A DNA stretch of 64,000 nt from Tubiluchus corallicola. Lineage: Eukaryota > Animalia > Priapulida. The translations under genes were made by a program, and so were the position numbers. Positions 9,017-50,420 of this stretch are shown one piece after another. The stretch is taken from contig JAQGDQ010000002.1 in assembly GCA_030141605.1 (NCBI GenBank), positions 1,364,001-1,428,000 on the forward strand, read 5' to 3'. Position 1 is the stretch's first letter, and the number at the start of each line of letters is the position of its first letter. Under the pieces are notes generated by a model that was not told where the DNA came from, searched no databases, and worked only from the letters and a program-made list of their open reading frames with translations.

Positions 9017-9139
9017 AAGAATCTTGAAATTTTTGAATCTCGAAATTCTTGAAACTGGAACTTACTCAGCCGTACTGTGCAATCAATAGTTGCAACAATT
9101 AGTTGTAACAGTCATTTTCTAGTATTTCAATTCATTCTA

Positions 9140-9367
<228 letters not shown>

Positions 9368-10499
9368 GTACTTACAACAGCAATAAAGAAGAAGAAAAAT
9401 TAATTCAGTGTAAGGAAAATGAAATTAGATATCTAAAATAGAATTGTAATTCTACAACAGGGTAAAAATCAAACTGCATTATCTAATGACATTTTTAACA
9501 ATATAAATCCAAAGCACACATTGAACTTTTAAGCCTTATTACTACGCAAATACTAAATATGACTAATTTATTAATGACACAGACCAACCTCGATATTGCA
9601 CAAATGGAGATGAGTATTAATATTAAGACAAGGTCTTATCTTGAAACTCACGATAATATTCTTCATAAAAAAGCTTAAAAATTCATCCTGGAATTCTGTA
9701 ACACTTACATGTTGTCCAATTTTTATTGCATACAGAGCTTGTGCTGACAGTAACACTGTACAAAGTTTTCCTCCTGGAGTTACCATTAGATGCACTCATT
9801 ATAACAGTAAGTCATTTGAAGCAAGCTTAAATAACAACCCATAGAGTTTCAGACCATTCTATAGTACACCTTTGTTGCTAAAACATAAATTATTTCATAA
9901 TGTTAATAAGATCAATAATGTGTTGTTTTTTGGTGACCCTGTAGTGCACATTGGGATGCTATATGACCAGCATTACATAGGAATAAAGATAAACCTGATA
10001 AATGATAATCTGGCTTATTGAATGTCACGCCTCTTAAAATACTCATTAATTGTGGTACACAATGCACTTTTGACATACCAATAATTATAATGTTACTTAT
10101 CTTACGTAAAAGGTTGAATTCTGAGTAGACTAAGTATTTGAAAAGAATCAGCACTTCTATAGTCATTGGCAGGTTATTCGACAGTTGCTGCTGCAAAAAA
10201 AGCAATGTCACCAGAAGAAAGTCAACTGGCATACGTTGATGAAAGGCAAATTGTCAGATGCCGTCAAACTGTGGTTACTTTTTAGAAGAACAGTAAGAAA
10301 ACATATAACGAATAATGCAGAGTTTACAGAAGTAGTATCAAAAATAGTTTCACATTCAACATTGATCCGCTGATAATGCATAGCTGAATAATCAGCTAAG
10401 TTATGTATACAACGTAAATAGGGCTCTTTGTTTTCCTGATGATAAAATACAAAATCAATAACTATGGCTACATAATTTCAGTAATAGTCAATTGCCGTG

Positions 10500-10762: not shown

Positions 10763-13700
10763 ATGTATAAAATTGTGGTACTGTTAATTAGCTTAACAGC
10801 ATGTTTTTTCCTAGAATTAAATGCTGATGAAGGAGCATGTCACCAGTTCGCTGGAGGCCATGTGTACCCTCAGGTAAATCCTCATTGGTATTGCTATTGG
10901 ATGTGAAAGTTTTGATTATAAAGTTATAACGATTATTTGGACACTCTCCGCAGTTCACAATGTTTGCAATAGAATAACATTCCAAAATCCCAACATCATC
11001 ACAATCACTCATTCAGTAGGTAATAAGTTCATTTCTTCTATTGCCTGGAAATGTTCTTACCACTGTAATATGTTGCCAACTTCTATAGATTGCCACAGAA
11101 TATTATGATTGGTATGTTGTTTATCCAGAAAAGGCGCAACTATTGAATAGTTAATTTGTCAGTGTAATTTCAAAAGAAAACTGTGAAGAAATGCCAAATG
11201 TAATGCCTCGATACACACCAATACCAGAAGTAGAAGATATACTAGAGATAGAGGAGAAAGAAGTATTAGACGAACTTAAAACACTGAATGTAAACAAACC
11301 GCCTGGTGACGATGGCATGTATGTACCTAAGGTTTTTAAAAGAAGTAAGCTCAGAACTAGTTAAACCACTCTCATTTGTTTTTCGACAAGTTACTAGACA
11401 AAGGGAAGGTACCTGAAGATTGGAAGTTGAGCCAAGTTTCACCGGTCTATAAGAAAGAAAGTAAAAATAATAAGAGCAACCACAGACCAGTAAGCCTAAT
11501 GTGAGTACCTTGTAAAACACTAGAGAAAATTATCCAGAAATAATCACAAGCACATAAAAGACAAGGTATCAAGAACACAACATATATTTATGTAAGGCAG
11601 GTCTTGTATTACTCAACTCTTAGATGTCATCGATTTATGGACCGAAATAATCGATCATGGAACTTGACTTGAGACAATCTATTTTGATATTGCAAAGGCA
11701 TTTGATTCAATCCCTCACAAAAGATTCTTACTAAAGGATACATCAATGGATAGAGTCAAAATCAATAATGCATTCTCAAGCTGAGCACCAGCATTATCAG
11801 GCATTCCATGAGGTAGCGTATGTTTAAATGATATGCCTGATATAGTAGTAAATATTATTAGACTGTTTGCAAATGATGCAAAGATATTCAGTGAAATTGA
11901 CTGTCAAGCAGATGCTGAAAATCTACAAATTAACTTGAACAATCCACAAGAATGGACAGAGGTTTGGCAAATGAGGTTTCATTGTACAGACAAATGTGTG
12001 GTGCTATATGTAAGTCATGATAATATGCGCAATACCTATGGTATGTATAATGATGGAGGATTGATTGGCGTAAACAAAATAGAGAGTGAAAAAGATTTAG
12101 GAGTCATCGTAGATAGTAAACTGAAGTTTGATGAGCACGCTGACATAATTGCCAATAAGGGAAACAAAATAGTCGGAGTAATGAAAGGTTCGTTTGATTA
12201 ACATGGACACCAACATGTTTTTGCACTTATATACCACATTAGTTAGACCAACTTTGGAATATGGTAATATAGTAACGTCACCATTTTATAGGAAGGACAT
12301 CAATTTATTAGAAAATGTATAGCGCAGAGCAACAAAGATGATGTACAGCATATCAAGTCTGGAGTATGAAGATTGATTGTTGACACTGAAACTGCTTTGT
12401 TTAACATACCGTAGGTTTAGAAGTGATATGACAGAAATATACAAGATCACACATGGCTGCTACGACAAACCAATAAAATTGGAACAAAATGAAAAGGGAA
12501 GTAATAAGGGTTATGCGTATAAAACTGGAAGTACAATATAGCAGACTCGACACGAAAACAATTTTTCACAGTAAGAACGCCAGAATTATGAAAAGTTACC
12601 AGAACAGGTGGTTGAGCCACTATCTTTGAATACCTTCAAGAACTGTTTAGATAAACATTTTGGAGTACCGAAAAACACACTTAAAGACCCTAAGGAATAC
12701 CTTTTCAGACAGCCAAAGCTTTTTGCTGAAACCGCGAACAAGTCGATGTTCAAAGAGATATGTTTTTATTTATGTGAAAAGTTAAGCGCTGTTAAGATCC
12801 TCAATAGGCAATATCTTGAAAAAGGACAACGACTGGTAACTGGTAATGTTAAATGGATAAATAAATATTAAATATATTTTAATAAATAAGGTGGTCACAA
12901 TGCAGCTGTCTCAGAAATACATTGATGATGATCATGACAACATTGCCTTTTGTGTAGGCCCATTTGCTGTATGCTAGAAGTTTTGTTGATCCTCTTTAGA
13001 AATTTTAATCATTTAAATGTATGTATTGCTTATCCGTGTAAAAACTAGGCTAGATAACATAGTCTTGACATGGTAGGCGAACTAGTTTAGTAGGTAACCC
13101 ATCCTCGAATCTGTTGCTGTTTTGTGGTTTTTCTCATTCGTGATTTAATTTGCAATTTATCATGATACCTAATCTAATTCTAACAAATGCCATGGTTTGT
13201 AAGCTACATGCAGCAACTGGGCTATAGTGCTCAGTGTTTTTAAAATGATTCAGTACTCATCTGATAACTCAATAAACTTTTGGTTCTAAACGGGTTAGCT
13301 GAGGGTATTTTTGATGTTTTACATTTGTAGATGCTGAATCAGTACAATGGTGCAATGTTGTCTCTGCAATCTCTGCCTATAGGTTATGTTAAAGCTTTGT
13401 CATTTGGCACATACTCCTATGGCAAACTTTTCCACTTTCACGCAAAAATTATGTATAATTTATCTTTGCCAAGACTGTAAATCTTCAATGTCGTATGTGC
13501 TTATCTGCAGAGATATAGGAGTAAATACCTTACAGTGATGTTCAGTAGGAGTGAGCAAACACTACCAGAAACTGAATCGAATTTTTGATTTTCGAATTCG
13601 AATTGTATCAAATTTCAAAATGTTGAATCCGAAACAACCCCGAATTCAGTTTTAAAGATCTTCGAATAAATTTTGAATGACAAAAATAATAATGTAGGCA

Positions 13701-14927
13701 AAAAACTCTGAGATGACGAAGACTGTACATGATTCGTGGCACCACTAATTTACCACTAAGACTATAATGATTGATTTATGTAGCTAAAATTAAGAATCAC
13801 CGCAAAAATTGTTTGCTGCCCTTAGAAATCTAATGAATCTACTTTTACTTATTGTTTTAGGTGATGTGTTTGAGATAAGTGTTATTTTGCATGCCTTAAA
13901 TTGTATGTTTTATTGTGGTGCACAATCTGCAAGTTGTCTCTGATAAGGATACCAAATAAGTATTGGCTTGTACAATGTACAGGTCATGCTAACAATGCAA
14001 GTATTTTCTAAATTGCTATAATGAGTAGGTGGCAGAGTGCAGACATTTGCTAACATTGACTGAATTGCCAATCACACTGCTTATTTCAGTTTTTCAGCAG
14101 CTCACAAAGATTGCATGCTGTTTCAGATATTTTAACGACAGAATGAAAGAAATCGGGGTGTAGAACTATTCAAATTCATAATTTGAGGTTCGAATCGAAT
14201 TTGAATAAAAAAAAATCATCAGAGTAAAAATTTTGTGTTGTGTTAGTTTAATTTGTGTATATATACTTGCATTGCAACTACAAATGTCTTATTCCAGGAA
14301 ACGACAACCACTCAAGGTGGACATAGTTTGACTTGGAGTAAAGCTCAGATTTCTAAACCAGCACCTTACTGGGAAGGCACCGCTGTACTTGGTAAAGAAT
14401 TTGTTGAGCTGAAGCTGTCTGATTACAAAGGAAAGTATCTAGTTTTCTTTTTCTATCCGTTGGATTTCACATTTGTCTGCCCAACAGAAATTGTTGCTTT
14501 TAGTGACGCCATTGAGAAATTTCGCGCAATAAACACTGAAGTTGTTGCTTGTTCGGTAGACTCTCAGTTTACTCACCTTGCATGGCTAAACACTCCACGT
14601 TGCGAGGGTGGACTAGGATCACTCAAGATTCCACTTTTGTCAGATCTAACTCATCAGATTTCCAAGGACTATGGTGTTTATCTTGAGGATCTGGGGCACA
14701 CTTTAAGAGGTCTTTTTATTATCGATGACAAAGGCAATTTACGGCAGATTACTATGAATGATCTGCCTGTCGGTCGATCCGTAGAAGAGACACTACGGTT
14801 AGTGCAGGCTTTCCAGTACACCGATAAGCACGGAGAGGTGTGCCCAGCAGGTTGGAAACCGGGTAGTCCAACTATAATTCCAAATCCCCAAGATAAACTG
14901 CAATACTTCAAAGAAACGGAGAATTGA
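10763..14927 (+). CDS. PRDX4: Peroxiredoxin-4 (typical 2-Cys, ER/secreted), 2 coding exons, ~246 aa
   Basis: Exon 1 10763-10873 encodes [37 protein letters not shown] (signal peptide plus the Prx4-type CHxxAGGxVYP motif) and ends at cag|gtaaat. Exon 2 14298-14927 is phase 0 and carries [13 protein letters not shown] (peroxidatic Cys) and GEVCPAGW (resolving Cys). Confidence 0.95.
11210..12660 (+). mobile_element. Decayed CR1-clade LINE RT region inside the PRDX4 intron
   Basis: Remnant motifs [27 protein letters not shown] (FADD), [14 protein letters not shown]; many stops and frameshifts. Confidence 0.85.
13570..14210. mobile_element. Probable old non-autonomous DNA transposon
   Basis: Clusters of GAATCGAAT/TTCGAAT at both ends, typical of MITE subterminal motifs. 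Exact TIRs not resolved. Confidence 0.3.
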
Positions 14928-18088: not shown

Positions 18089-18109
18089 ATGATGTCAGCT
18101 GACTCATAA
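18089..18109 (+). promoter_or_regulatory. Upstream ORF (MMSADS*) whose stop overlaps the spectrin start codon (TAATG)
   Basis: ATG ATG TCA GCT GAC TCA TAA at 18089-18109; main ATG at 18109-18111; probable acceptor ttttctag at 18066. Confidence 0.45.
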
Positions 18110-21100
18110 TGAGTGGAACAATAGAAACTAAGGTTGGTAAGCGTGGCTCACAGATGCGTGATAGCTACCATGATGATGCAGCAGCTACTCAGCGAATAAA
18201 GCAACTGCAGAGTGAGCGCATTTATCAGCAACAAAAAACTTTTACCAAATGGATGCAAAGTATTTTCAAGAAGGTGATGTATCGTTTAATTTTTTTGGTG
18301 TATTGTCACATAGTGTGCATAGGTTGAGCCTCTTAAGTTATTTTTAAGGATATGTGTACCACAGAAATAGCTTTGTATAATTAAAAATTACGAACAGCTA
18401 CTTTTACAAAGTTGTAGTCATGTTTAATAAGCTGGCTAATCAGTGATTTATCATTGGTGCAGTATTGTGCTCAGTGCAATGGTCTATGTTTGCATTTTGC
18501 TATGCAATTAGCTTGATCTTTTATTGTAGTACTCACATGCTCAACTGTATCAGGAGTTAGCAAGTTACTGCCAACAGCATAATGAGTAGTACAATCATTG
18601 TACGTGTTTAGAAAGTTCCAAGTTACCTATTTTGGCTGTAAAGGCTGAGATTGCAATTGGCAAAAAAATTAGCTCAGACATTTTCATATCCAGTTAAACA
18701 CACTTTGAGAGCATTTGTTATTCATTATTAGCAAGCATCTTTTCTTGTCTTTCAGGCTGGGATAGATTTGAGTGATCTTGACATTTTCAAAGATTTGAAT
18801 GATGGAACACTTTTATTAAGGCTGATGGAATTGATATCTGGTGAGGATGTTGGAAAACCTAATCGCGGCAAAATGAAAGTACAGAAAATAGAGAACCTGA
18901 ACAAAGTGCTTAAATACATTTCGTCAAAGGTATTGAATACTTCTGAAAGATATTTGCAATTAATGATTTTTGTGCAAAAATTGTTATGGTAACCTACCTT
19001 AACAAAAAAATGCTTTTATTATCAAGGAACAATTTTTTGTAGCTTTTGAGAACTATTATTTTTTTATACTTTCTTGAAAATGCTACTTCGCTATTTAGAA
19101 CTATTTTTTGTGGTAGTCTGTCAATTCAAAAACTGGATAATTTATTTAATATTTCTTACCTGTGTTATTTTAATTTTTGAAAAAGAGTAGTGCATTTATT
19201 ACGAGCTGCCTGGATAAATTGACTTAAAATGTTAGTTTGATTATTACTTTCCTATAGTGACATGTAAATAGTTCATTCGGTAATTTGTTCTCCTTTTTAA
19301 TTTTGTTGAAATCTCTGTATGAAAGGTAGGATATTGTACATTCAAAGTTATTAGACCAGTAGCACTCAATTTATACTTGTAGTAGATAATTCTGTAGCTA
19401 TACACACATATATGTAGTCATATACTATTCTTCAGGGTTAAAAAACGACTTTCCATATTCTGAAACCATTCTTCATTGGCAGCTGCTCAGAAAGTCTTTT
19501 GAGCATTCAAATTAATCATGATCATTCATTTAGCCTTTTGTAATCCGTTTAACCTGAGTGCATTGACGGACAAATGTAGGCACATCTCTGCTTTGATGAA
19601 TAACTATAAATCCTTCTTACATACCTTTGTATTGTATCAACAAGATAAGGCTACCGATGACATGCTTTTTAAGTACAAACTGATTAATACTGCTTGCTCA
19701 GTAAACGGTGAACACATTAAATAGGCACTCCTTCAGAATTCTATTCACAAGTTTACTGGCAAGTATGAGTATGCCCCAAATAAAGAATATTATATTCATT
19801 AATAATTGTACTGATTTAATAATAAAATTGAAATCATGTTATTACCTTTTTAAAGTAAAAAATTATTTAGTTGAATTACTTGTCATTTTATATATTTTTG
19901 TAGATTAAAATTTGTGAAAATTTGCCAGTAAAAAATGAAATACAGTACGCATCGTAATTTTAATTTACTGTTACGTTATTTATTTTACAAAATTTAGTTT
20001 ACCTACTTTTCAATGTTTATCTTTTGCTATATTTTATAAATATTTTAAACTTTCTTTTGTATAAACCATTTTTAAGTCTAATTTAAGCAGTTGTTATCAA
20101 AATACAAATTTGAGGTAACTATGTTTACGCTTTTGTTTCTTGACAATAGACGCGGTTGGAGAACATTTCTGCTGAAGATATTCTTGATGGTAATCCCACC
20201 CTTATTCTTGGCCTCATGTGGACTACAATCCTTCGGTTTGAGATTCAAGTTATTCAAGAGAATTTGGTATATTTTAGTACATTTTTAAAACAAGAACCTA
20301 TCATAGATAACTTGAACCTGTTCTTGCGAAAGGAGTTTGATTTTTCTTGTGTTCACAACAGCAACATCGATGATGATAATGCGTAACAGGACTGACCACT
20401 TAGACCCCATTCTCGAAATGGGTCCAGTTAAACATTTTAGAGAACATTTGAGAGGATTGTTGACAAGAAATGTGAAGTTTTTTTTATTTATGTAGGAAAC
20501 ATGACTAAAATGCCTTTATAGTTCATGTTGCTAGAATGTTCTTGATGAGAACTTTGTATGATGAAATTCTGATTAGTCATTTTGGTAAAGCAGTTATAAG
20601 TTTAACACAGATGGCCAGTTTCAATATTATTTTGAATGCTGTGTTGAAAAGCTGTTTTCGATTGTAACGTCTGTCACGTAGTCTTAAGTTATTAGTGTAA
20701 ATTTATTAACTAATGTAATGTGAGTTTTTTATGCTGCAGGAAAGATCGAGAGCTGAAGAAGGGGAAATGACACTGCAAGAACTCGGTGTTGATGAAGCAA
20801 CTCTAGAAGAAATGAAAGTAGGTGAAAGGAAACTTAGGTCTTTCCTTTGTCAGTAGCTTTATACATTTAAACTTGTTTAGATTTACCTGTCCTCAGGCAT
20901 TATTACATTTACTAGCTAAACCCTACAAAAGAATTTTGTGCAAAACCAACAACTATAACCATGTCCCATCTCACCATACCATACCACACCCATCACAACA
21001 TCTACACAACGCCACCCACATTATACGACTTGCACCATGCCATCAACACCATGCCACACCTACCACACCATCCATACCGCACCACATCAGCTCCCCTGCT

Positions 21101-21957
21101 GATGACGATCGTGATAATCATTATGATGACAACAACTTCGGCAGCAACAACAACAAAAACAACCTAGTGAAATCATGTAAAAACATTTTGTGCAATTTGA
21201 AACTGTGTGCAAAAGAAAAATGCTATTAGATCATTCACCAATAATCAATAATGCGCAACATTCTATACATTCTTTGTAGTCTTGGATCACTGATTCCATA
21301 ATGACGATAAAGTAGCCTAGCTTATTAACCCTTAATAGATGTAAGTTTTAAAAGCCAGCTAAACCGAAGCAATCTGTAGGCAGAATATAATGGGTGATGT
21401 CACAGAAAATGAATTGTGCCCTACTCGTTTTGCACTGAGAAAATTGCAAAAAGACCTTGGAATCGTCTTTTTGGGCTAAAGTGGAAGCATTCATAAAAAA
21501 ACCTACATCGTCACGTAGCCCAATTTCTTCTCTTTCCAAAGAGCTGTATATCTCCCACAAAGATCCCAACAGGTGCCGTACGAATATTTTTTTACACGTT
21601 GTTTCATCAATATTTCAGAAAAATTGGCTTGTTGGGTTCAGGGAAACACCCACTGCTGGACAGTTGTCCTTCCAGGAAATCTAAATCTGCCTACTATTCC
21701 CATCCGTTGAATGGGCTATCTTACTACTGCTGGTACCACTCTCCACACTCTTGTTTTCTTGAACTAAGTAGTATAAGTTTAGCAAAAACTGGTGAAAAGT
21801 GACCATTTTTGGAGGTTTTTAGCCTACTGTACCTCCTGGTGGTCTTGATTCGAAAAAATAAACCATCAGTGAGATAACACTAGACTGAGACTTCGTTTTG
21901 ATATGTAGATCACCGAAAATGGTGCAGTCCTTGGAGTTGTAGCCATATAGGTTTCCA

Positions 21958-21995
<38 letters not shown>

Positions 21996-24900
21996 GTAGT
22001 CACTTAATAAAACCACAGATAATAAAAGCAACTGCATTTTAGAACTACTTAGGCAGGACCCAAAATTACTTCCATAGAAACAATTGCTAACAAAAATTCA
22101 GATAATAAAATCAGTGCAACAAAATGTTCAATAATAGGCAACAATAGCAGAATGAAAAAATAAAATGTTTCTTTGGTAGTTTGCGCATTTTTTTATGATA
22201 CGCAGTGAAATTTTCGTCTCGTGTTCTAGATTTGCCCCTTGTTAGTCAAAATCATGCTGAAAGTTAAAGTCCTTAGTTTCAGTTATAACTGTTCTGCATA
22301 TCCAGCTGCTAATAAAGAGCATTTTAGTCTGTTGAATGAACTTGAATGACTATCGTATGCTTGAGTTATTCTGTAGACATGCTAGTGAGCTGACTGCCCC
22401 TCGTCTGTATGAGCCTGTAAGCAAAGTTTTTATATGTAACATGTTGAATTAGGTCAGGCAAACATATTAAATTTTGGATTAATCTTGCCAAATATAGGTG
22501 TTTGCAATAGACCACCACATAATAAAACCACCATTTATTAAGACCACTTATAGATGGTCCTGTAGTGGTTTTATTAAGTGGCGACTACTGCTATCCAAAT
22601 ACCAGCATAATTAATATATGCTAGATGTCAGGTTTCTAATACTCTTAAAAGAAATACAGTAGGCGTCGCTTAATAGACTCACTTTGGGACCAACGTGTTT
22701 TGACCCAGTTAACCAACTGAACCTATTAACCGATGGGTGTAGTATTACAGGTATAGAAGTATAAGTCATCACCTTACTATGCACTGCAAAGGTTTTTAAT
22801 TAATTTTAGACATGTAGTAATGCATAAATTCCTTTGTGCAGTTAAAAACTAGAAAAAATATTTTAAAATATTAATTTATATAAGTGAAATAAATTAAAAA
22901 GTATACTTTTCGAAATCACACAAGTCTGTTTTTTTGCGAAAATTACAAAAATTCCTTCAAAGTCGGCTGCTTCATTTTCTCGCGAAGAAGTTGGCCCACA
23001 AATTATAAAAACATTGGAAATCTGTTGTTGTGCATGACTAAAACAGTTCTGAATTGTCTGCTCACTTACATTGCCTGCATTTGCTGTATGATGTTTACGT
23101 AAGTCACGAGGAATACCTGCTGATTACTGTACCTGCATCTTTGACTGTTAACTGATTAAGCCTGAAAGCGTGATTTGCAACGAGAGCATCAGAAGGAAAC
23201 TGCTAGGCAAATGATTAAATGTTTAGCTTCCAGAAATTCTTTGGGTAACAGTGGACGAGCGGGTAACAGATTCAAAACAAAATCGCTATGCTAGCCTATT
23301 AGTGCATAATAAATGTACCTGCTTATAAACAAAACGGTACTTAACATGATTGTTTCTGTAGACATAGCGCACAAAAGAGAAGTAAAGATGACATAAAGTA
23401 GGAAAGGTTCTTTTGGCACATACAAATATGTTATTTTAAGCAGATGAAGGAAAAATATTGAGTCAATTATGCGGAGTTATTTGAGTCAAATACCAATAGA
23501 TTTACGTATATTTGAATAGAAGCGGCCCGTTCTAGGCGTTTTTGAGTCAATTAAGCGATTAAGTCTATTAACCGTGTATCTATTAAGCAGTGCCTACTGT
23601 AGTAGATTAACTAAAAACTAGAGAAAAGTGTTGACTAAGCTTTTAAGCAAAAGTCATTTTACAACTTTTCTGAAACAATATGCATTAGTTATGTATTTTT
23701 AATTTAATTTAGTATACAAAAATTTTAAAACTGGGGCTCTTAAGCTATTGCCACCAAAAATTTGTTTATTATATCCAGTTACTCGTATAATTTTTGTTAA
23801 GTTCTATAGTTACATTGCAAATTAATAACTCTGTTTGGTATGGCAAGTAAAGTGATTGTAGTTATTGAAATATTGTACTTGCAAACCTTTAACTAATATT
23901 TCACTGCTAGACATATTCCCCACCAAACGAAGTGTTGGTAGAGGATATAGTAGAAATTTATGTATATGCATACGTGTTGTTTGGAATGTTTTATGTTATA
24001 TCTCTGAAGCCACTGAAGCAAGTCTCACATATATATTTTACTAGTAAAAAATGTCACTTTGATTCAAATCATCATTGACTCATCATTGTTTCAAACTTAT
24101 TGTTTTGAGTTATATTTTTATGGCCAACGTAATTCCACATGATACATGGATGATACTAGTGGAAGAAAGGTTTGCTGAGGTGCACTTGACTTGACTTTGA
24201 ATCATAAAAACCATAAGGCTCTGTGTTGCATACAAAGATTTTGTTGATATTTTCATGGCCACTGAGGTCAAGCCAGTCAAGCTTTGGAACAAAGGTACCA
24301 AGCCTGTTAGGGCCAAGATTGGTATGGTACACTTGGTGTTGACTTTTATCTTAAAGATGGTAGGGCCTCGTATTATAACTTCTGTAAACATTTTAGATGA
24401 TTCACTTTTTATCATTTTTTAACATTTTTAGAAAAAATATCCAGAGCTGTTTGGGACTACTGATGCAGTCCAGCAAGCACTAGCAGAGTTGTATTTATCA
24501 ACAGTTGACCTTGACACAAAACTTGGAGATCTTCCTCCAGTTCTTACCCTCCGTGACCTTGGTGTAAAGGATGATAATCTTCCCGAGGGAGCTTCACCGC
24601 ACACAACTCTTGCTGATTTGCCTGCTGAGATGACTCTTCGCGATTTAGGATTTACTGAGCATGATATGCCTGCAGTAAAAGATAGAATACATCGTAGCTG
24701 TTTAGTTCACTGTGGATTAATTTACCAAGATGTGATGCCTAACACGTTAAACACCAGTACAACTTTAGGTGAACTTCCTCCAGATATGACATTACGTGAT
24801 CTTGGCTTAGATGAAAAACAACTAGCAAAAAATGTTTCTCCTGATATAACGTTGAAACAACTATCGTCAGAATACCAACTGAAAGATTTGGGTTTTAAAG

Positions 24901-27900
24901 ATGAGGAATTGCCAAAACTTAGGGATTCTGCAAACAGGTCTTACCAATTGAGACACGAGCCAATATATGCCAATGTTGTGCCAGTTAACATAAATACAAA
25001 AACGATGATGAAAGAACTGCCACAGGATTTGGAAGTGCGAGACTTAGGGTTGCATAAAAAGAACATCCCTAAGGAATACTCTGATACTATGCTTTTAAGA
25101 GAGCTACCCCCAGACATGACTTTAGCTGAGTTGGGTGTCCTAAAAGAAGATATTCCCAATGTTCAGAGAAGTGCTAATTTGAATTACACACTGCGCCATG
25201 CACCAGTTTATCGAAATGCTATTCCGGCAGATATTACGCAAGAGACATTAGTTAGCATGTTTCTAGAAGATATGACATTGAGTGATCTGGGAATAACAAA
25301 AGAACAACTTCCTGAAGCTGTGTCTACAGAAACAACTGTTCGAAATTTACCAAAAGGCATGAAAGTAAGAGACTTGGGGTATGATGCCAAAGACTTGCCA
25401 GTTGTCCGGGAGCATGCAAATGCTACTTATCAATTGAAGCACGGACCAGTCTACAGTAATGTTTTACCGGCAAGTCTTAGTCCTGAAACTAAAGTAACTG
25501 ATCTTCCACAAGACCTGACACTGAGAGAAGTTGGAATCAAAGAGCATCAGGTACCTGCCAAGGTTTCCCTGGACACTAATTTAGAAGAGATGCCAAATTT
25601 TATGACGTTAAAAAGCTTGGGTGTTGAAAAGGAAGACATACCTCAGATTCGAGATTGTGCTATGCATTGTCATCAAGTTAAAAATGGTCCCTTATATTGG
25701 GACTGCTTGCCAATTGAGATGACTCCTGACACGAAACTGAAAGAATTGCCACAAGACATGACTTTAAGGGATTTGCAAGTGATTGAAGTTCCTGCAGGTA
25801 TGTCTGCAGATACCATGCTGTGTGATCTTCCAGGTAATCTCACCTTACGTGACCTTGGATACACTGAAGCAGAAATACCTCTGCTGAGGCAGCACGCTAA
25901 TCAAAATTATCAACTTCGTCGTGGTCCTGTAATAGTCACTGAGTCAACTGCTGTGCATCAGTTGCCACAGAAATTAACCTTGGGAGAGATTGGCTTGTCA
26001 GAGGAGCAGATAAAGCAGCTACCAGGCAGTGTCACACAGGAAACAACTTTAAGCGAGCTGCAGCAGGACCTAACACTTGCTGATCTTGGTAAGTTGTACG
26101 TGATTTTAATTAAAAAATTCTAATTAATGTATTATTAACACTGTCATTTATTGTATTATCTTGATTTGCATATTATTTTTTGGGTCTAACTTTGTGCAGG
26201 CTTGACTGACTTACTGTGATAGCCATAGAGTTGTTGTTTATTAACAGTCATTGGGTTTATAAATTATACTACAAGCAGCTTCAATCTTCTGTTCTTGTTA
26301 CATACTAAGAAATTTCCAAACATTTTTATATACTGGTTTTTTCTTTTACTTACTCTTACTTCTGGAAACCAAAGAAAAGTTTGTGAATTACTTTTGAGCT
26401 AGTTTCTTGTGAACATTTTAGTGAGTTGTCCAAGTATAAAATTCCCCTTGTTATTATCTCCTCTTTTATGTAGTTAAACCCCATTACTGATGTACATAAT
26501 ACTTTGCCTTGAAAATTTCCCATTTTATGTTCCTGTTAAATTTTAAAAACTTGGATTCTTGCAGTTAGCCTGAAATATACATTTAGACTCACATTATCGA
26601 AGTATTGCTGTAGTCTAATTGTAGCATTAGGTAGGATAAAATGCATATTTTTGAAACACCAATTTGTTTCAGTCTGGTTGTTTAATTTATTCTATTTTAT
26701 GTATCTACTAAGTATATGTAGTTTTGTACAAATTATTTTTATTTTCTAAGTAATTTTCTAATACTAATTTCTGTAAGGCAAAACTGGGATCCTGTGCAGA
26801 CATTGCGAGTTACAGTGGTTCCTTTTTTGTCTGGCACAGTATCAACATAAAATAATATCTGTTGGTTGAGTTATTTATCTTTGCACTTTTCTAGCATAAC
26901 TTTATTTGCTTTAGACCTTTGGAATGCAAATGTAACAGTGAGTAATCTAGGGATTTATATCAGTAGTAGCATTTTATGAAAGTAAACTCGCGCTACCCTT
27001 TTGAGTACAGTAGGCTTGTTTCAAAAACAAATGGTGTAATGGAAATCTCTCATTTTGCTGCATTTTAATTGTTAGCAAAATTTGGCACTGATTGTTAATT
27101 TACTGGTGAAGAAATTGCAATTGAAATAATTAAAAAAAATTGTGTGGGACATTTAGATTAAGCATAATCTGAATTAGTGCATAAAATTTAATTCATTGGA
27201 AATAATACCCGGACATGGTAAGGTTTTTTAAGTAACAGCTTTACCTACTAAATGATTAGTGTTTGTGATAAGTGTCTGTGTGAACCTGACTCTCTGCGTG
27301 TCTCCCACACCTGCATCTCCTGTTTGCATTGGGTGCTAACTCGAGTGGAGTTAACTCTAGTTGGTAATGAGTTGGTGATCATCTTGAGGACCAAGATATA
27401 ATTACCTGCGCTCAGGAGTGCGCTGCTATGTAGGTAGTGAGTACTCAATGGGTTTGCAGACACGGCTGCAAAGCCCTACCCATGTGCTTTTGCAACAAAC
27501 GAATTTAGATGGTTCCGGGCCATCTGTCTTTCTACTCGACTGATATCACACCCATTTTTGTAGGCTTCGAGGTTTGTGACCCTCTTGGCCCAAGCCAGCT
27601 CTTTATTCCACACCGGTGCCGATGCACTCATGCTCACCAGCGAGTCTGGCGAGGCTTGCATACGACTGAGCATCTTGACCTTCATCAGAGGCACATCCTC
27701 TTCAAGACAAGAAAACCCTATTCTGCCCTTTTTCATGGACAAACTCATTTGATCCAAGAACAGGTTGAAATTTGGGGCCTTCAAAAACATAGAACAAAGT
27801 TAATGGATTTAGAGATTGAAGAGCCTTTTTGACGTTTTGTTTTTCTGTGAAAAAAGTTTTCTCTGTTTTGTATACAGGTGTCAATGAGGTTGACGGTGTA

Positions 27901-30900
27901 CAAAGAGTAAAAAGCGTTGCTAATCCCGACCCCATTGCGACGAAGTACTCCGCTGTGGAGCTTTCTGCTGATATGAAACTTTCAGAGCTGCCTGAAGGTG
28001 TTTCAAAGGAAATGCTGGGCATTGACGAGGAAACTTTGAATAAATACATTGTAAGTTGCTAAACAAGTAATACACTTGTTTAATTATAAATCAATCTATG
28101 TAAGCATGGTTTAAATGCAACTTTTATTAAACGTGGCTGTTCGAATATACTGAAAAAGATAACATTACATATATTGATTTTGTTAGTTTACTGACTTATA
28201 GGAATGTATAATTTATGAGACCAGAGCATGATGTTAGATCTAGTAAATTTTCCTTCAAGTGAGTAGGTATTGAGTTGCACAAACTAACTTGTCTTACTTT
28301 AACATTAATGTAGGCAGAGAAACCAGAAGGCAAAGAAAAACAATCTGCAAAAGAGGCCCTCTTGATGTGGTGCAAGTCTAAAACAGATGGGTATGCAGAT
28401 GTTTGAATGGCTTTCTTTACTGTAATAGTTTATTGTATTTGAAATGTATAATATTTTTGTGATACGATGCTAAATTTTGAAGGCAATGATGACGACATTG
28501 ATAGGAATTACTGGAACACTACAAAGACAAAATTTTTGGTAAATCGCTGGACATAATTAAGATTACAAAAATACAGTTTATCAAAGTAAATTTGGTACTA
28601 GTGCATTGCATGTGAAAGGATGCAGCCTGTACGTTTGCTGCTTACACATAACGCAAATGCTTAATTTTGATTTTTTATAACTGCTTAACTAGGCATGAAA
28701 ATTGTGAAGTGCAGAATTTCTCTCAAAGTTGGAATGATGGTATGGCTTTTTGCGCTCTTATTCACACTCATAGGTAAGAAATATTTGTTACTATATATTT
28801 CTGAAATTATACCAATTTCATACTTACTATATTTAATTAAAAACAAATAGTATTTTCTTGCTTAGTGTCACATGACTAATTCTGGGTTAGTATTTTTTCT
28901 ATGTAGAATAACACTAATTGACAGGACCCAATTATTATGAGGTGGTTATGTTAGACTAAAATCGGGTAATTGGTATCTCGCTATGATGGGTAATCCTTTA
29001 AAATGAGACATCGAACTAACAAACGTATCCTAGTTGTGTTTAGCTATATGTGCACCCTCCTTATTCCAGATAAATTGGCAGGGTGGTATGGCAGATGTGG
29101 TCGCCTAAAATCAGCTATGTTAAAATCCTTAAATTGTTATTTTATGGAATTCTGTGCTTTACTGTTTTGGTTTCCCTAATTTCAGGCCAGACTTAATTGA
29201 TTACGACTCGCTGGATCCAGAAGAACGGGTTAAAAACCTAAACTATGCGTTTGATATCGCAGAGCAAGAACTGGGTATCCCACAATTGCTTGACGCAGAA
29301 GGTAATTAAGGAAGCTGACACATGCAGTAAGTCCTCATTTAACGACTCCCAGTTTAGCGACGTTTATTTTAACAATGCTGAACATTAGACACCTTTTTTC
29401 ACTTCACGACACACATTTCATTTTAATGACGATTTTTTTACTTTGCTGAAAGCCAATTTGCATTTTATCAACAACTTTTTTACTAAATTTGAAGCATTAA
29501 AACAGCACATATTGCGTTATTCTGTTTTGAAAGTGCAATAGTAACATAAACAGTGCAATTATTATATATATTCTTGCTTCCCGCCTGACTAATACTATAC
29601 TAGCTGCCATTTCTATCAAGCAACCAGACTATGTAGTAAATGATGCAGTGCTCTGGAATGATAAAATTTCCAAGGTCACCTCATGCAGCGCTTGGGTTTG
29701 ACTCTGCAATGTTTATTGTTTAATGTATGCCTAGGCTTAAACCGTAATGAAAGAGAAATGCTAGACAGGTACATATTGGTAAGAAAGATAAGTGGTTTCA
29801 AGCAAGCAGAAAGAAATTAATTAGTAGAAACCATAAAGAAACTCATAAAACATTTAACTGATGTGATTTAAGCAGCATTGAGTTTTGACTCTGGAACATA
29901 CTTCAGTTCTTTTACATTATTTTCTGTGGAAGTTTTGGTTTCGTTTAACGACGTTTCCCTTAACTGCGCATTTTGCTGGAACACATTTGCATCGTTAAGT
30001 GAGGACTTACTGTACATCAGGTTGTTGTAAGTGTAGTTAGCTTTCTAGCTTTGCCTCAACAGGAGGTTGTATTCAATTTGTTTTACGATGTTAGGTGTGC
30101 ACCATGCAACATTTTTGTACAAAAAATTGTCTGGGTTGTTTATTTTGTTCATGGTAACAAACTAATACGTAGATAAGCAAAGGGTAAATAGCTAATAGCT
30201 CTTTTGCTTGATCAGTTTTAGATTATTCATATTCTGAGTTTGCCAGTTGGGTAGACCTGTTTTGTGAACTGTTAACATTACTTTATAGAGATAATAAAAT
30301 ATTGTGGATGTAAACCTAATTTGCTGAAATGCTAAAATTAATGTTCTCGTGTGATCTGTGTTGTCATTGGTGTTATAATTATTCTAGTGGTCTACCATTA
30401 TGCTTCTAGTTCAGTTGTTACTATGACATTTTTAAAGTACCTTTTAGACAATCAGTTTTTTCATCAAACTCGTTTGTCATTTAACAAACTAATTTGATCA
30501 TGTAAACACCGAAACTGACAAACTTTTAATTTGACAAATGAAGTTTGATGATATCAAACCGTCTTCAATTCATCAAACAAAAACTGACAAACTCAGACAC
30601 AACAGTCATTTGTGCACTCGTGACATCATACTGACTGTTCATTTTCGTGCATGTAGGAAGAAATTAATAACAACTAAAAACTACAGTTGGGTCTATTGTG
30701 AAATTTAAATCGGCTCTAGGGGTTCTTTCACAATGGGATTGAATGTCAGATTAACTGCATAATTTGCACAAATGTTAAAGTGCACATATCAAAACTGACT
30801 TTGAAGTACACATTTCCTTCAAATTGCTCTTATTGGATAAAATTTTTCAAAGTGATCTCGTTTTTTTCTTAATGTTGTCGTTATTAATTCAAAAGGACGG

Positions 30901-33900
30901 TATAAATATGCATCAATCAGCATTATTTGAAGCTGGCTGACACTGGGACCTGGAAGGTAGAAGCGGTAGTAATAAAAAGGAAATTCTGATTTTGCTGTAC
31001 TGTTTTCTACCAATTCAACTAACGAATTTGTGACAGTACTGTAGATGTGTTATACAGGCATTGCTTAGTTTGTGTTTAGCTTCATGAATCATGGCTTCCT
31101 TTGAGGATCTAGTCAAAAATTGCGGGTGTAACATATGTATATAATTCAAAAGTCACTCGGCACCTCAGTTTTTAGCTCTCTCAAAATCAGGCAGTAGCTC
31201 TCCCTTTCGATTCTTCGCTGTAGTCGTTTTTCATCCAAACTTTTCTAACTCTTTCCAATTTCTCGTTTTCTAATTGCACAAGCTAGCACAACAGGCAATA
31301 AAGCATCTTCACATGTTGGCACCATAAAATTTGATGTCACCTCTAAACACGTATCATTTGTTAGATTGACGGTTTTTGTTTGTCAGTTTTAGTTTGACAG
31401 TTTAAAAACTGGTCGTGTAAATGGACCATAAGTGATCTTACCTGCTACATGATTCTACTAAAGGTTGCTTTTCCTACTAATGATTTTTGAGAGTAAAAAT
31501 GGTGTTTGCTATCAAGTTCAAGTCCAAATAAATATTAACATGATATTTTATACCTCTACAATGCTGTTTAGTTTCTCATAGACCCTTTACAGATATGCCT
31601 AAACTGCTTTATGCATTAACGACAACAATAATAATAAAAAAGTAAACACTTGCAAGATTGGCTGTGCTCCCACTGCACATGCATTTGTGTGAATTTATTT
31701 GAGCTCTGTATTTATAGGCTTGGTGAGAATGTAGTTTTAGCAAATGAGTTTCAAATACAGCTTTATTTTTTCTGTTACAGATGTGGCTGTTAAAAGACCA
31801 GATGAAAAATCTATTATGACATACATTGCCTCTTATTATCATACATTTGCTAAAATGAAAGACGAAAATACAAGCAGTAAACGCATTGGCAAGGTAAATG
31901 CTGATGACTTTAGACTAGCCACTGTTTTTAATCATAATTGAGATAATTGCCATTTATCAGTAATGGTGTGTGTATCTTTGTTTATTAATTGTTGGCGATT
32001 CATTTCAAGTCTTCTTATCAGTGCAAAGTAACATCATGCAGATTATGAACAAATATAAGTTTTTTTAATGCTTGAGATAAATTTGATATGACATCTGAAA
32101 AAACGTCAATTACATTCATGGATCAAAGTTGCATGTTGAGTTATGTTTACTTTGACTAAAAAACTCAGCATCAGTATGTATCAATATAATGCAATAAGTT
32201 TATTTTAAAATGTTCTTACTTTTAAAGGAACTTGCCCAAGTCAGTATGGCTTGCGTACTGTCCGCAGGCCCATTCAAAGAGTTTCCTGTAATTTTATTCT
32301 TTTTGTGTCTTGTTTTTATTCAAAGTTGTGACTAGCACTGTTCACATGAGCAATTTGAAATTTAATGAATTTTTGTTAACAAAAACCTGTATGTTTGGCT
32401 ATAGTTGCTTTTTGGCTGTATTAATTATTAGCCTTAGGTAAAAGTTTGTTGCATTTTAGATAGTAAATTTCATGATGGACATTGACGAACAGAAGGAAAT
32501 TTATGAACAAAGTGCCGACGAGTTATTAAAATGGATTCAGAATAAAACTGCTGAGCTGAATGATCCCAGTTTACCAAATAGCATGGAAGCTACACACCAA
32601 GAACTTGCAAAATTCCACGATTATATTAGAGTTGAAAAGCCACTAAGGTTATCTGAAATCTTAGTTTATAATATTACTATTTCTTGAAAAAACTTTTTAA
32701 AAACCACATTAAGTCTGCTATTTAATATTTTTGCATGAAATGATATTATTATTGTTATTGTAGAGTATAGAGAACAGATTTAAAATTCATTCTGCACAGC
32801 TTTATAGTTTATGCCAATGGTCTTTCATTTTTACTTACATTTTGTGTACACTTACTTTCATATATGACTGCCTTTGTGACAGTCATATGCCATTTTCATG
32901 CACGTAATTGTGTACAGAACAGGTATAGGTCACTTATTGATACTAAAGTTTACCACGGCTAATATAGCTTAAGTCATTCGAAAAAATACATCACTTCAAA
33001 AATGCGAAAATTTCATCATGGTAAGTAAAGCTTAAGTTGTTTTTAACGTTTATTCTGAACTTTTTTTATTACAGAATGTTGTGCAGAACACTTCATTATC
33101 ATTAATCTTTCATTGTGCACCACTATAAAAAATTTTTATTCATTACAGATACAAGGAGAAAGGCGAACTTGAGGCACAACTGTTTGACATCCAGACAAAA
33201 CTTAATGCAGAGAGTCGTAGTTACTATCAACCGCCTGAGGGAAAACTTGTTAGTGATGTTGAGAAAGCTTGGCAGCAATTGGAGAAAGCTGAACATGCAC
33301 GTGAAGTTGCTCTGCGAGACAACCTAAGAAGGTAAGTGTCACATTTATTATTGCCAATCAGTCCCTTCATTGTGTTAGTATCACTTTATTTAATCATTGT
33401 CAATCATTTGATTTTTTCCATCATTAGGGAAGAAAAATTGGAACAGCTAGCTGAGAAATTTAATAGGAAGGCAGAGCTTAGGGAGTCATGGCTTGCTGAT
33501 CAGAACAAGATCCTTGATAACATGCCTATCGGCGAAACGGCGAAAGAAGTGGAGTTGGCAGCAAAGAGACATGTAACCATGACAACTGAAGTTCTTGCGC
33601 GGGTACGTTTACTTTGCTATGGCTTCCTGACTGCTAAGTTGTATTTGGGAAGCATGTAATGGCAGGCGTATTTGAGACTGTCCATAATCCTTCAGTAATT
33701 CACATTTTAAAAATATTAACCCTACAGTATTTATGTTGGGGACAATAGTATTGTGACACCCTATGAATATACAGAAGTGTTATATCTGACTCCTCCTTAT
33801 AGCTAGGATTACTTTCCAGTTAAGAAAATATTTTTAATGATTCCGAGAGGACAAGAAGCCTTTTCTTAAGAAATTAGTTTTTAATATTTTTTAAACCAAG

Positions 33901-36900
33901 CTGGGCATCAGTTTACTTATAATAATTATAGTTTAATTATAGACATTCTTATTTTAGTTAAGTAAAGTTTCATGAAACAAATTTAGACAATATTAGCTCC
34001 ATTCTTGCTGGCTTTCGTTTGTCCTTCTAACAAGTTTTGTCAGATTAGTATCAGTAGTAATCAATGAAATTCAATTTTTTGGCTATTTGTTTTTGATTCT
34101 GGTTCACTGACTAATAATCAATAATGGTCTGCAGATGATCTGTTGTGATTTGTTAACACATAAAGTGTCAGTCAAGGACAAATCTATTTGTTTTACACTC
34201 ATTTCTATTTTTGCTTTTTTTATTAATGTAGAAAGACAGATTTGATTTGCTGAAAAAAATGGCAGAGCATCTTGCAGAGGCAGATTACCATGAGACAACT
34301 GTAATTAAAGCAAAGTAAGTTACTTCATGAAATGTTTAGTTGTTTGTATGAATGATATTCTATTTAAAATAAACTATTTGGGATTATTTTGTTTTGATTT
34401 TGATGGCCATTGGGCTTCCTTATTATATAATTTCCTTTTGTGGCTTTCACACATGCGTCTGGTAACGAACTCTTCAGTGCCGTTAACATTTTGCAAAAAT
34501 TGTTATTCCAGAAGTAATAGCAAAACAAATTACTGTACTTGCTATGAAGATATAATTGAATGTATGTCTTTATCTTAAAAACAACTGTACGATTAGCTTG
34601 TCAGTAACAAAAAATTTGCTACAATAATTAGAAATGAGAGGTTCTGTTGTAATGGACTCGTAATGAATTAAGACAGTTAGGGCTATTAAGACAAGCAACA
34701 GTTTTTGTAGTAACTCAATATGAATATAAATATGAATAACTCAACTTAAGTATTTCTGTCTTAAAATACTCATTACTCACCTCAGTTATTGCATACTTTT
34801 AAATTTGGTTTTAGTGACAGTGTTTTTTAAGAGAGATGATGCAAAGTACAGATTTGCTTATAAGTAGCACTTAACAACAAATGCAGTCTGAAAAAACTTT
34901 ATAACTCAAGATTTTTTTTTATTATTTTGGCAATAATTGCACCCTGTGCATAAATACTGAATAAACTCTACTGTACCACTTCTGTTGGTCACTAAACCTA
35001 TGTAATATATTTGACTACTTTGCTGTATTGGTGTATGCTGTATTAAATTTACACATGAAAAATTATATGTGTGCTTGTATAGCAAAATCGTCAATAAGTC
35101 GGCAATTAAGCTTTTCTAGCTATTCATATGTCCTGATTCTCCATTTCATGAGGATCATTTTGATACCCAGCTTATCGCACGGTATTATTTCTAAGCTGAG
35201 ATAATCCACAATGAAGTTGAGGAGCACGCTACACAGTGAAAAACATAATCTTGAGAAAATCGCAGTTAAAGTTCGCCATTGTTTTTTGTCGTGTTTCTTC
35301 AAAACATTTAGCAACCGTACTAATGTTGGTTGCTACTGACTTTGCAAGAACTCGTTGAAGTTATGTTTAAATCTAGTAGATGGCTCTTCCTGATGAAGAC
35401 CTGGGCTTGGCAACGGAAAAAACCCGAAGCAAAATGACTGCTTCCACGAGCTACTATCGGCGTTTGAAAATACGAGTTTTTTACAATTGCAGTACTAGTT
35501 TCTAGACAGAAAAGTGGGCACGGGTTTAATAGATTAGATTTTTAGTATTTCTTAAAAATTTTCTTGACAATCTAGTGCTAGAATATTAAAGTCCAATATA
35601 TTTAGAGTTTGTTTTTTAAAAACCAGAAATTGGCATTTGACCACTCTGCTTTCTAGTTTGAAGCATTCTACTTTGAAGCATCATAACGTAGTTTTAACTA
35701 TGCCAACTTATGGATGGTTTTGGTTTGCAAGCACACATATGAAAAAATTGCCAGAATGCATGTTTTTATTTAGTTTATTACTTTACTTTACTTAATTAAA
35801 TTTCAGACATGAAAAGATTGCAGATGAATGGCATAGCCTGCTGCTTAGAATGAATGAAAAACAAAATAGTCTGGACAATGTAAACTCTGTCATATCACTG
35901 ATGAGGGACATTGATAGTCTGAATTCAGAAATGAAACATTTGGAGGTAATGTTTTGTTTATTCTCATTTTCTTTTCTACATTTATGTTTCTCCTGTAACT
36001 TTCAGGGCAAGTGCTAGTTTTTAAGCTGTGTGACAGGATAAGCTTTTTTGCTACTGATGAAGAATATAAGTGATGGCATCAAAAATAAGTACATAATAGG
36101 ATATCTTACAGAAATAGTCACTAAAAATGTTTCTACTGGGTTGCTGATCAGAATTTAGATTGTAACTGAGATGTTTCTCCTTAATTTTTATAGCAAAATT
36201 AGTTTACAAATTAAAGCAGTCAGTATTTAATTTAGTCGTTTTAAAAACTTCTTGTCACATTTCTTGCCAGGAAGCCATTATTTATAGTTCTGAAGTTTAC
36301 TTTCAACCAGTGCTTTCCAGTGCGTGTTTCTCTACTATTTTAAATTGCTGAAAATACAAATGCTGGCTTTGTATAATTGCTTTTTTTGTCACTGAAACTT
36401 TTGGAAAAAATAAATGACAACATGTGAAACAGTTTTAAAGATTCTTCTTAGTTAACACAGCAAACAGTGAGGGAACTAATTGTGATATAAACCCTTTTAT
36501 AACTGTGATTTATCAGAAATGTTTGTCATTGCAGCCTGGTGTAGACTCTAACGTAATGGGCAATGAACTTATTGCTGCTGATCATTTAGTTGAGAAACAT
36601 GCCCTCCTTGACAGCGAGGTCAAATCAGCCGGAGAAAAAGTGAACATCTTAATTGAAAAAGCTGAAAAATGGACACAAGAGAATCCTGCTCTAAAGAAGG
36701 AAATTGAAAGAATGGCAGACAATTATGCACTGTATGTTTTTTTTTACTAAATTGGCTTATCTTTCTATGTCATTTGAAGACTGACAAAATGGAAAAATTT
36801 CTTTAACATCAATTTCAAAATTTTCTGATTTGCAGACTACTGTAAATTTTGCTTTGACACTTCAAGAGTTTGTCTATTGACACTACTACTAGTGCTGCTT

Positions 36901-49949: not shown

Positions 49950-50420
49950 TACATACATTGTGGTAAGTGGTGCTGCATTAAGTGTCTGGATTACAGTAAG
50001 GATATGTATGAGAAGGCTAAGGATAATGAATTTATTTGGTGCTGCTCTGACTCCTGCAGCTACGAGGCGACAACAGCATTAAAGTTTGCCAAAATTCTAG
50101 AAAAAACGTTTGAAGACCTGACTTTGATAATGGAAAAGAAATTGTCATCTATTACAGCTGGTGTTGCCATGGAAAAGCTCATTTGTCGACTTAGTAGTGA
50201 GCATAACAATGATGAAACTCCTGAAACACCAAACAATAAAATGGTTAAGAAAAATGGATGATGCCCACACCAGTAGCAAAATTGCTCAAGTGATGCACAG
50301 TGATGAAAAAGAAGAAAGAGAGAAAAGGAGAAAGAAATCTGATTGTCTTCAACATGCCAAAGTGTGATGCCAAAGAACTGGACTCGTGTAAAGTTTATAA
50401 TGCCACAGTGTTTTAATATA
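49950..50420 (+). mobile_element. Decayed LINE ORF1 fragment (PHD-finger type, CR1/L2)
   Basis: ..MYEKAKDNEFIWCCSDSC (PHD C-terminal half), a coiled-coil segment, then EEREKRRK; frameshifted. Confidence 0.5.

Follow-up and report, generated by a model that had tools for sequence, protein, structure and literature searches.

Actin binding by spectrin, alpha-actinin, dystrophin, filamin and plectin, together with several disease mutations, is understood through the closed/open model of the tandem-CH domain, which has so far been tested by point mutants and short linker swaps. The 1000-fold affinity gain of the L253P mutant is reported to rest on domain opening (PMC5676748), and looser linkers are reported to raise F-actin affinity, with the Kd moving from 19 to 0.7 uM (PMC6938246, PMC7240100). 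Beta-III spectrin L253P and a utrophin/filamin linker chimera, as these sources describe them, supply a mechanism by which separation of CH2 from CH1 raises F-actin affinity; however, the former is a point mutant and the latter a short engineered linker (PMC5676748, PMC6938246), whereas the locus described here would part the two domains by a folded 71-kDa insert.

Several described genes resemble this locus in part. Drosophila Shot has a giant optional plakin-repeat exon near its N-terminus, which gives rise to longer isoforms with demonstrated transcripts (PMC2173965). Both cases involve a large in-frame repeat exon in a spectrin-family gene, but the Shot exon follows an intact actin-binding domain and encodes plakin repeats, whereas the present insert is set between CH1 and CH2, is divided over three exons, encodes an uncatalogued 81-aa repeat and is predicted from DNA. 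MACF1a3 and BPAG1a3 likewise have extra coding sequence that joins CH2 in place of the usual CH1-CH2 junction (PMC3352950); these are described as alternative starts without CH1, while the insert at this locus begins with an exon whose strong acceptor is in phase with the CH1 donor before it. Plectin exons 2alpha and 3alpha are likewise spliced alternatively within an actin-binding domain of the tandem-CH type (PMC3695321), although they are small exons between exons 2 and 4, compared with 636 aa in the linker here. The giant ankyrins of bilaterians are another case of a membrane-skeleton gene with an optional exon of unusual length (PMC5135030), but that exon belongs to another gene and site and is described as ancestral to bilaterians, while a search of 1.84 billion representatives found the present repeat in three other proteins only. 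In a full-text literature search, which covered few subscription papers, we found no natural insert between CH1 and CH2 that runs to hundreds of residues. Nesprin has an insert of roughly 30 aa between its CH domains, which the search did not turn up in the texts it reached.

The locus lies in a 64-kb stretch of DNA (the window), where three exons with a predicted product of 636 aa separate the CH1 and CH2 exons of an intact beta-spectrin gene. We favour, with moderate confidence, an alternatively spliced cassette that would give a long split-domain isoform beside a normal short-linker isoform.

Within the window the host gene was modeled as 19 forward-strand exons encoding 876 aa without a stop. 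The model opens with exon 1 (18109-18273; N-terminal extension and start of CH1), followed by a CH1 exon (18756-18929; Pfam CH, E 9e-6) and the last CH1 exon, which carries the first half of the linker (20150-20266) and aligns to residues 132-165 of beta-III spectrin. The second half of the linker and the start of CH2 are encoded at 28314-28390 (aligned to beta-III residues 168-190), and the other CH2 exons, recognized by Pfam CH and PDB alignments, lie at 28693-28773, 29186-29301 and 31781-31893. Both CH1 and CH2 are spread over several exons. Twelve exons (32460-43347) encode spectrin repeats 1-5. The Pfam order of CH and then Spectrin matches, with CH1 and CH2 N-terminal to the repeats, identifies the host as a beta-spectrin by its predicted protein; the best PDB matches were beta-spectrins for two CH2 exons, with alpha-actinin first for a third. 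The CH1 end at 20266 and the CH2 resumption at 28314, given in the earlier note, were borne out: both boundaries are in phase 0, with a GT donor and an AG acceptor, and are flanked by CH matches.

Beta-heavy spectrins carry about 30 repeats, with a PH domain at the C-terminus, and the beta-heavy label is plausible for this host. Repeat 5 breaks off at profile position 72 and gives way to non-spectrin sequence with an acidic stretch; 43213-43347 is presumably like the start of an SH3 domain and is taken as a possible SH3 start only. Searches of this 45-aa exon in Pfam, PDB and Atlas gave no SH3 match. An SH3 domain inserted among the N-terminal repeats is described as a mark of beta-heavy spectrin (PMC8699742, PMC6233056). 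No further host exon was found in the 20.6 kb of the window after 43347. Another gene, an antisense GPCR, seems to be nested in the host gene region.

The predicted insert exons, all on the forward strand, are located at 20740-20817 (78 nt, 26 aa, phase 0-0, one half-repeat motif), 24432-26088 (1657 nt, 552 codons plus 1 nt, phase 0-1) and 27878-28050 (173 nt, phase 1-0, the terminal half-repeat). Joined, they comprise 1908 nt that encode 636 aa with no stop, in frame with both phase-0 flanks. Splice sites were scored with matrices trained on the 18 acceptors and 18 GT donors of the host gene and ranked among the 493 AG and 474 GT dinucleotides of 20300-28300. The acceptors of the three exons ranked 4, 2 and 5 of 493, and the donors 15, 5 and 18 of 474, respectively. 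High rank alone is no proof of use, since the best-scoring acceptor of the interval, at 20496, runs into stops whichever frame is read. Alternative sites include a phase-1 donor at 20821 for the first exon and, for the second, an in-frame acceptor at 24505 and internal phase-1 donors at 25797 and 25833. The open frame of the large exon runs for 563 codons; judged by composition, such a frame would arise by chance with a probability near 1e-17 to 1e-19. The two remaining forward frames contain 52 and 48 stops, and codon use is host-like. Branch-point motifs were dropped as evidence, as they precede 6 of 18 host acceptors and 197 of 493 in the background.

The earlier note had proposed up to six exons and 669 aa. 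Its large coding insert in the CH1-CH2 linker was supported by frame, splice rank, homology and a conserved end point, while the count of exons and residues was not, because three micro-exons of 32, 40 and 27 nt were rejected and the insert is consequently 636 aa. These had been given by length only, and their best-match positions are 21280-21311, 22377-22416 and 23911-23937; altogether, 136 in-frame AG..GT triples of these lengths fit the interval. The 32-nt and 27-nt candidates were outscored by 117 and 201 of 1265 open pseudo-exons, respectively. The 40-nt candidate topped this null, with a score of 17.2 against 32.0 and 35.5 for the 78-nt and 173-nt exons, but it needs a phase-2 input that the 32-nt exon alone supplies, and it sits inside an inverted-repeat element. 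The repeat motif of the insert is absent from all three.

The element in question (21980-22601, 37-nt arms) is probably MITE-like, as is a second, high-copy inverted-repeat element (22655-23601, 28-nt arms), over which the summed contig depth reaches 930-1618 compared with <15 in unique DNA. The depth of 99.9 over 20389-21939 is the flat mean of one contig and was not taken for a duplication. Run X2, RNA by guess, matched multi-copy intron elements only, with no match on the spectrin exon stretches listed for it, and was uninformative on the use of spectrin exons.

The insert consists of about seven copies of an 81-aa repeat with a period of 29+52 aa; the large exon holds six repeats of 79-81 aa and a shortened seventh. 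A motif HMM built from homologues only ranked the large exon first among 2874 six-frame pieces and the 78-nt exon second (E 0.023), with E 0.27 for the 173-nt exon and 3.9 for the next piece. In AlphaFold2 predictions a single repeat folded confidently (pLDDT 84, pTM 0.70), while the whole insert reached a pTM of 0.34, at which repeat spacing and end-to-end distance are not fixed by the model. The sole Pfam match of the repeat, to ADH_Fe_C, is partial (E 1.5e-7 in the window, 0.019 in the homologue P0001); it is absent from P0002 and P0003, and we judged the likeness to be at motif level. No plectin-repeat match was found at E up to 1 in the large exon or the homologues, and Foldseek searches with the whole exon and with a single repeat gave no match at or below E 0.001. 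The best of 48161 chains in VIA-align gave Z 2.2 with an rmsd of 5.0 over 61 residues, the best E-values were 0.026 in a PDB sequence search and 0.058 in NCBIfam, and the Atlas search of the repeat returned no usable match. The repeat is uncatalogued, and no family or fold matches it clearly, which does not by itself imply a new fold.

Among 1.84 billion representatives, the repeat was found in three other proteins only (P0001-P0003), which come from two other contig records, P0001 from one of 4661 nt and P0002 and P0003 from one of 3816 nt, and are colinear with the large exon at 45, 59 and 53% identity; the same-position repeat is the best match in only three of six rows. By protein we treat them as homologues, whether orthologous or paralogous, that may lie in a spectrin gene. 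P0001 carries the counterparts of the large and 173-nt exons in one frame, with the seventh repeat likewise shortened. The third insert exon matches P0001 residues 568-603 (E 2.5e-7) and ends at the same place. After the shared end residue P0001 has Val (GTN) and then a tail of 24 aa, compared with 3 aa here; since Val/GT is kept and the tail is not, the shared end point, seen through protein only, probably reflects a conserved donor rather than a conserved stop. P0002 and P0003 break elsewhere, consistent with another intron. No full-length relative was found among 7991 candidates of 967-2760 aa, a range that a whole beta-heavy spectrin would exceed, and none among 5818 candidates of 30-131 aa; sizes of 132-302 aa were covered by the representative search only. 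Pattern matches in the DNA collections (metagenome, 457; prokaryote, 25; viral, 16) included no relative. P0004 (E 7e-4) was rejected as a low-complexity chance match, and L001, a 1299-nt locus and the sole return of the CH1 scan, as an unrelated one.

The main rival, which we consider unlikely, is a spectraplakin-type alternative N-terminus that the earlier note had left out of its linker-insert reading: an internal promoter and a Met in the 78-nt exon, spliced to CH2, would give a CH1-less spectrin with a 600-aa head replacing the actin grip. CH2-only MACF1 and BPAG1 isoforms from alternative starts are described (PMC3352950). The 78-nt exon has two in-frame Met codons; the ATG at 20767 has a purine at -3, the motif match begins near it, the nine codons before it are unlike the repeat, and the link of the insert to CH2 is better supported than that to CH1. 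However, this ATG is preceded by the strong acceptor of the exon (rank 4 of 493), and the exon is open in phase 0 from its first base, fitting the CH1 donor that lies 473 nt before it. These 473 nt would also have to accommodate a promoter, a first exon and an intron, unless a CH1 exon were skipped.

Constitutive inclusion, by which every copy of the spectrin in this lineage would have a split domain, is improbable in our judgment, even though intron lengths slightly favour it. With the insert included the introns measure 473, 3614, 1789 and 263 nt, of which the flanking 473 and 263 are typical of the host (97-2480 nt in 17 measured introns), while the skip form needs a single intron of 8047 nt, more than three times the longest of these 17. 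Very long introns may nevertheless occur in this gene, given the exon-free 20.6 kb after 43347, and a complete linker of the normal type and the closing residues are still present in the flanking exons.

We give a similarly small chance to the insert exons ending the protein (CH1, repeats and a stop) or belonging to a separate nested gene on the same strand; the antisense GPCR seems to be another nested gene of this region. Reading on past 28050 gives 3 codons before a stop, and splicing to an acceptor at 28202 (score 7.3) would give 9 codons in phase 0 before one. On the other hand, the unconserved tail beside the conserved Val/GT argues against a terminal exon, as does the lack of AATAAA or ATTAAA in 28202-28313, and both cassette ends match the host phases. 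An assembly chimera, transposon remnant or dead sequence is highly improbable. Multi-copy elements do lie in the introns around the insert exons, and run X1 offers no one contig across the whole interval, but the large exon combines 563 open codons, host-like codon use, single-copy depth and 45-59% identical homologues. Contigs of X1, which may come from the source sample and so not be independent, bridge 20199-20373, 20389-21939, 25507-26533 and 28060-28611 without a discordant joint at 98%, and the sole X1 variant in the open frame, 25955 G>A, is synonymous.

We return to the alternatively spliced cassette. Splicing of the three exons into spectrin mRNA is predicted, and we infer that both splice forms exist. 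The large exon has its first Met at residue 67, within a repeat conserved from residue 28, so its translation must begin further upstream. The direct splice (20266 to 28314) is in frame and gives a normal linker, 3 residues longer than that of human beta-III. A Leu occupies the L253-equivalent position in an ungapped range of the PDB alignment, and a Trp of CH1 and a Lys of CH2, which we take to be a cation-pi pair, are identical to those of beta-III in the alignments. Cation-pi is described as a type of pair between CH1 and CH2 (PMC6938246). If the exons are included, 636 aa are predicted to be added, and this form would no longer have a short linker; as a tether, the insert would still hold CH2 at an effective concentration of about 0.07-4 mM. 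The suggestion that the domain is constitutively open is unsupported because of the normal skip linker, the retained Leu and this concentration.

In the long isoform, CH1 and CH2 would be parted by a 636-aa chain of about seven repeats, each predicted to fold as a small unit; strung together like beads, these would form an acidic tether reaching at most about 19 nm. By analogy with the linker chimeras and L253P, this tether would weaken, not necessarily abolish, the closing of CH2 on CH1; F-actin affinity would then be higher in the long isoform, whose CH1 could extend further out from the spectrin rod. Every effect on actin binding given here is drawn by such analogy. The repeats may also serve as docking sites. 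Tentatively, one animal lineage would have a beta-spectrin with a natural split tandem-CH domain: a new folded repeat, about 636 residues in all, would hold CH1 and CH2 apart, unlatch CH1 under splicing control so that it binds actin with high affinity and at long reach, and add a chain of seven docking units.

Even under the main rival, the locus would encode a spectrin headed by 600 aa of a repeat without clear known family or fold. If the cassette is real, a natural 71-kDa linker insert, selected in more than one lineage record, would mean that the CH pair tolerates or exploits wide separation, and the insert would give a ready in/out comparison for tandem-CH opening.

The CH1-CH2 intron of a beta-spectrin gene contains a real, conserved repeat cassette of 636 aa (71 kDa, pI 4.7), encoded by three plus-strand exons of 78 nt (20740-20817, phase 0-0), 1657 nt (24432-26088, phase 0-1; the large exon) and 173 nt (27878-28050, phase 1-0). 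As the earlier note had placed them, the last CH1 exon ends at 20266 and the first CH2 exon starts at 28314; the phase is 0 at both borders. Of the up to six in-frame exons and 669 aa that the note proposed, these three exons were retained, whereas micro-exons of 32, 40 and 27 nt were rejected, since 136 triples of those lengths fit the interval. The 32-nt and 27-nt candidates were outscored by 117 and 201 of 1265 pseudo-exons, respectively; the 40-nt candidate topped this null, yet its phase depends on the 32-nt exon and it sits in an inverted-repeat element.

With matrices trained on the host gene's exons, the acceptors of the 78-nt, large and 173-nt exons rank 4, 2 and 5 among 493 AG, and their donors 15, 5 and 18 among 474 GT. 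These ranks are support rather than proof, because the top-scoring acceptor of the CH1-CH2 interval (20496, 229 nt past the CH1 donor) is followed within 30 nt by a stop in every frame; it may mark a poison exon or a CH1-only terminal exon, or be due to chance. Alternative in-frame routes through the insert give 613, 551 or 539 aa, and the frame also allows the 78-nt exon alone, or its omission. The large exon also has strong internal donors at 25797 and 25833; each is phase 1, keeps the frame into the 173-nt exon and could shorten the insert by about one repeat. The intron ahead of the 173-nt exon carries a 107-codon antisense ORF (27479-27799, minus strand), likely a transposon piece, with zero Pfam matches and multiple copies in X1, a sequencing run compared with the window.

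In the window (animal DNA of 34% GC, zero N), 19 plus-strand host exons (18109-43347) encode 876 residues without a stop, in which Pfam identifies CH1, CH2 and five spectrin repeats, in this order. An acidic stretch interrupts the fifth repeat, as does a 45-aa exon that we take to resemble the start of SH3; searches of Pfam, PDB and Atlas gave no confirmation of an SH3 there. The host is thus a beta-spectrin on the evidence of CH1, CH2 and five repeats, while the beta-heavy identity named in the earlier note (as defined in PMC6233056 and PMC8699742) is likely. The exon at 41322-41435 ends at a GC donor (41435-41437; GC-AG intron), with which alone the frame closes. No more spectrin exons were found on the plus strand of 43348-64000 (20.6 kb), where no candidate scored above 21.8; the better host exons scored 34-60 in-sample. 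At 52813-53565 an antisense ORF for a rhodopsin-type GPCR (Pfam 7tm_1) may lie inside a very long spectrin intron, or the gene model may break off after 43347. At a distance of 3.2 kb, the spectrin start is preceded by a peroxiredoxin ORF (14247-14924, plus strand), intronless in its conserved part; an ankyrin-repeat protein gene has exons at 265-1633 (minus strand), and a long AAT microsatellite (9109-9400) gives open frames of poly-Asn/Ile/Leu. Two short plus-strand ORFs without convincing Pfam match (11812-12198 and 49950-50364) presumably resemble retrotransposon remnants.

The insert unit is an 81-aa repeat; both of its parts, 29 aa and 52 aa long, have a core of the TLxDLG type. The insert comprises six complete or nearly complete repeats, a seventh that is shortened and a terminal half-repeat, with 30-42% identity between copies. 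In an AlphaFold2 model of a single repeat (9 alignment rows; pLDDT 84, pTM 0.70), one long helix accompanies two small knuckles. For the whole large exon (pLDDT 69.5, pTM 0.34) confidence between units was low, as expected for beads on a string whose spacing is not fixed by the model. Foldseek, VIA-align, PDB sequences, NCBIfam and Atlas gave no clear family or fold for the repeat, and the insert's sole Pfam match above cut-off, a partial ADH_Fe_C, is weak or absent in homologues.

Among 1.84 billion protein representatives, four scored E <= 0.001 and three were judged real homologues (P0001, P0002 and P0003), each known from one Logan record. Identity is 45% for P0001 (628 aa), 59% for P0002 and 53% for P0003; a word search returned P0001 as the sole homologue among 7999 candidates. 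P0002 and P0003 probably represent two exons of the same gene, since their contigs have a common length of 3816 nt and the two proteins cover neighbouring parts. P0001 is colinear with the insert, shares its shortened seventh repeat and reads on in one frame into a match to the 173-nt exon (E 2.5e-7), stopping at the same residue. Beyond this point P0001 and the window both give Val and then differ, with stops after 24 and 3 residues, respectively, which fits a common phase-0 donor. When 2874 six-frame pieces were scored with an HMM of the homologues only, the frames of the 78-nt and 173-nt exons came second and third, which ties all three insert exons to one protein. By these sequence comparisons the insert is conserved coding sequence, and we infer that the homologues are orthologous to it and linked to spectrin, although the same-position repeat is the best match in only three of six rows.

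An isoform in which the insert would split CH1 from CH2 is likely. The predicted 5' join is supported by a strong in-phase acceptor of the 78-nt exon, which is separated from the CH1 donor by 473 nt, and by the position of the first Met of the large exon, at residue 67. This acceptor argues against the main rival, an unlikely one, in which the repeat exons begin an alternative N-terminus without CH1; it draws on an in-frame ATG at the start of the motif in the 78-nt exon and on the CH2-only isoforms from alternative starts described for MACF1 and BPAG1 (PMC3352950).

Direct joining of the CH1 and CH2 exons is in frame. On human beta-III spectrin, position 35 of 39 of the CH1 exon corresponds to residue 165 and position 2 of the CH2 exon to residue 168, so the resulting linker is three residues longer than that of beta-III. 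The host CH2 has Leu at the residue matching beta-III L253, and a Trp and a Lys of the CH pair, which we take to be CH1-CH2 latch residues, are retained relative to beta-III. The near-normal linker and retained closing residues favour the addition of a cassette to an already functional domain; a constitutive insert, in every copy of the protein, is accordingly quite improbable, even though skipping requires an 8047-nt intron, compared with 97-2480 nt for 17 host introns.

Four features speak for the predicted 3' join (28050 to 28314): the conserved end point, the phase match to the CH2 exon, the 263-nt gap and the absence of a poly(A) hexamer between 28202 and the CH2 exon. Except for the gap, these same features make it very doubtful that the repeat exons end the protein or belong to a nested gene of their own. 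It is extremely unlikely that the insert is an artefact: X1, with 198 of 201 contigs at least 99% alike to the window, looks like DNA from this very species and may stem from the window's source sample; its contigs have zero discordant joints, several bridge exon-intron borders, and its sole variant within the insert ORF is synonymous, although no contig covers the whole CH1-CH2 interval.

No natural CH1-CH2 insert of comparable size was found among the listed matches of full-text searches covering mostly non-subscription papers. As an optional giant exon set, the proposed cassette would resemble the giant exons known from Shot (PMC2173965) and giant ankyrins (PMC5135030), but its insertion site and repeat differ; the known splicing inside this domain, in plectin, uses small exons (PMC3695321). 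Work on tandem-CH domains describes CH2 as restraining CH1: opening accounts for a 1000-fold gain in beta-III with L253P (PMC5676748), and Kd shifts from 19 to 0.7 uM in utrophin with an unstructured linker (PMC7240100, PMC6938246). Seven 2.75-nm repeat units in line would span ~19 nm. The insert would weaken CH2 closure on CH1 without necessarily abolishing it, because a flexible tether of 5-20 nm end to end keeps CH2 at 4.4-0.07 mM near CH1 in a rough Gaussian-chain estimate. We give about even chances to an optional long isoform, whose actin-binding end would be looser and longer in reach and whose repeat chain may dock partners.
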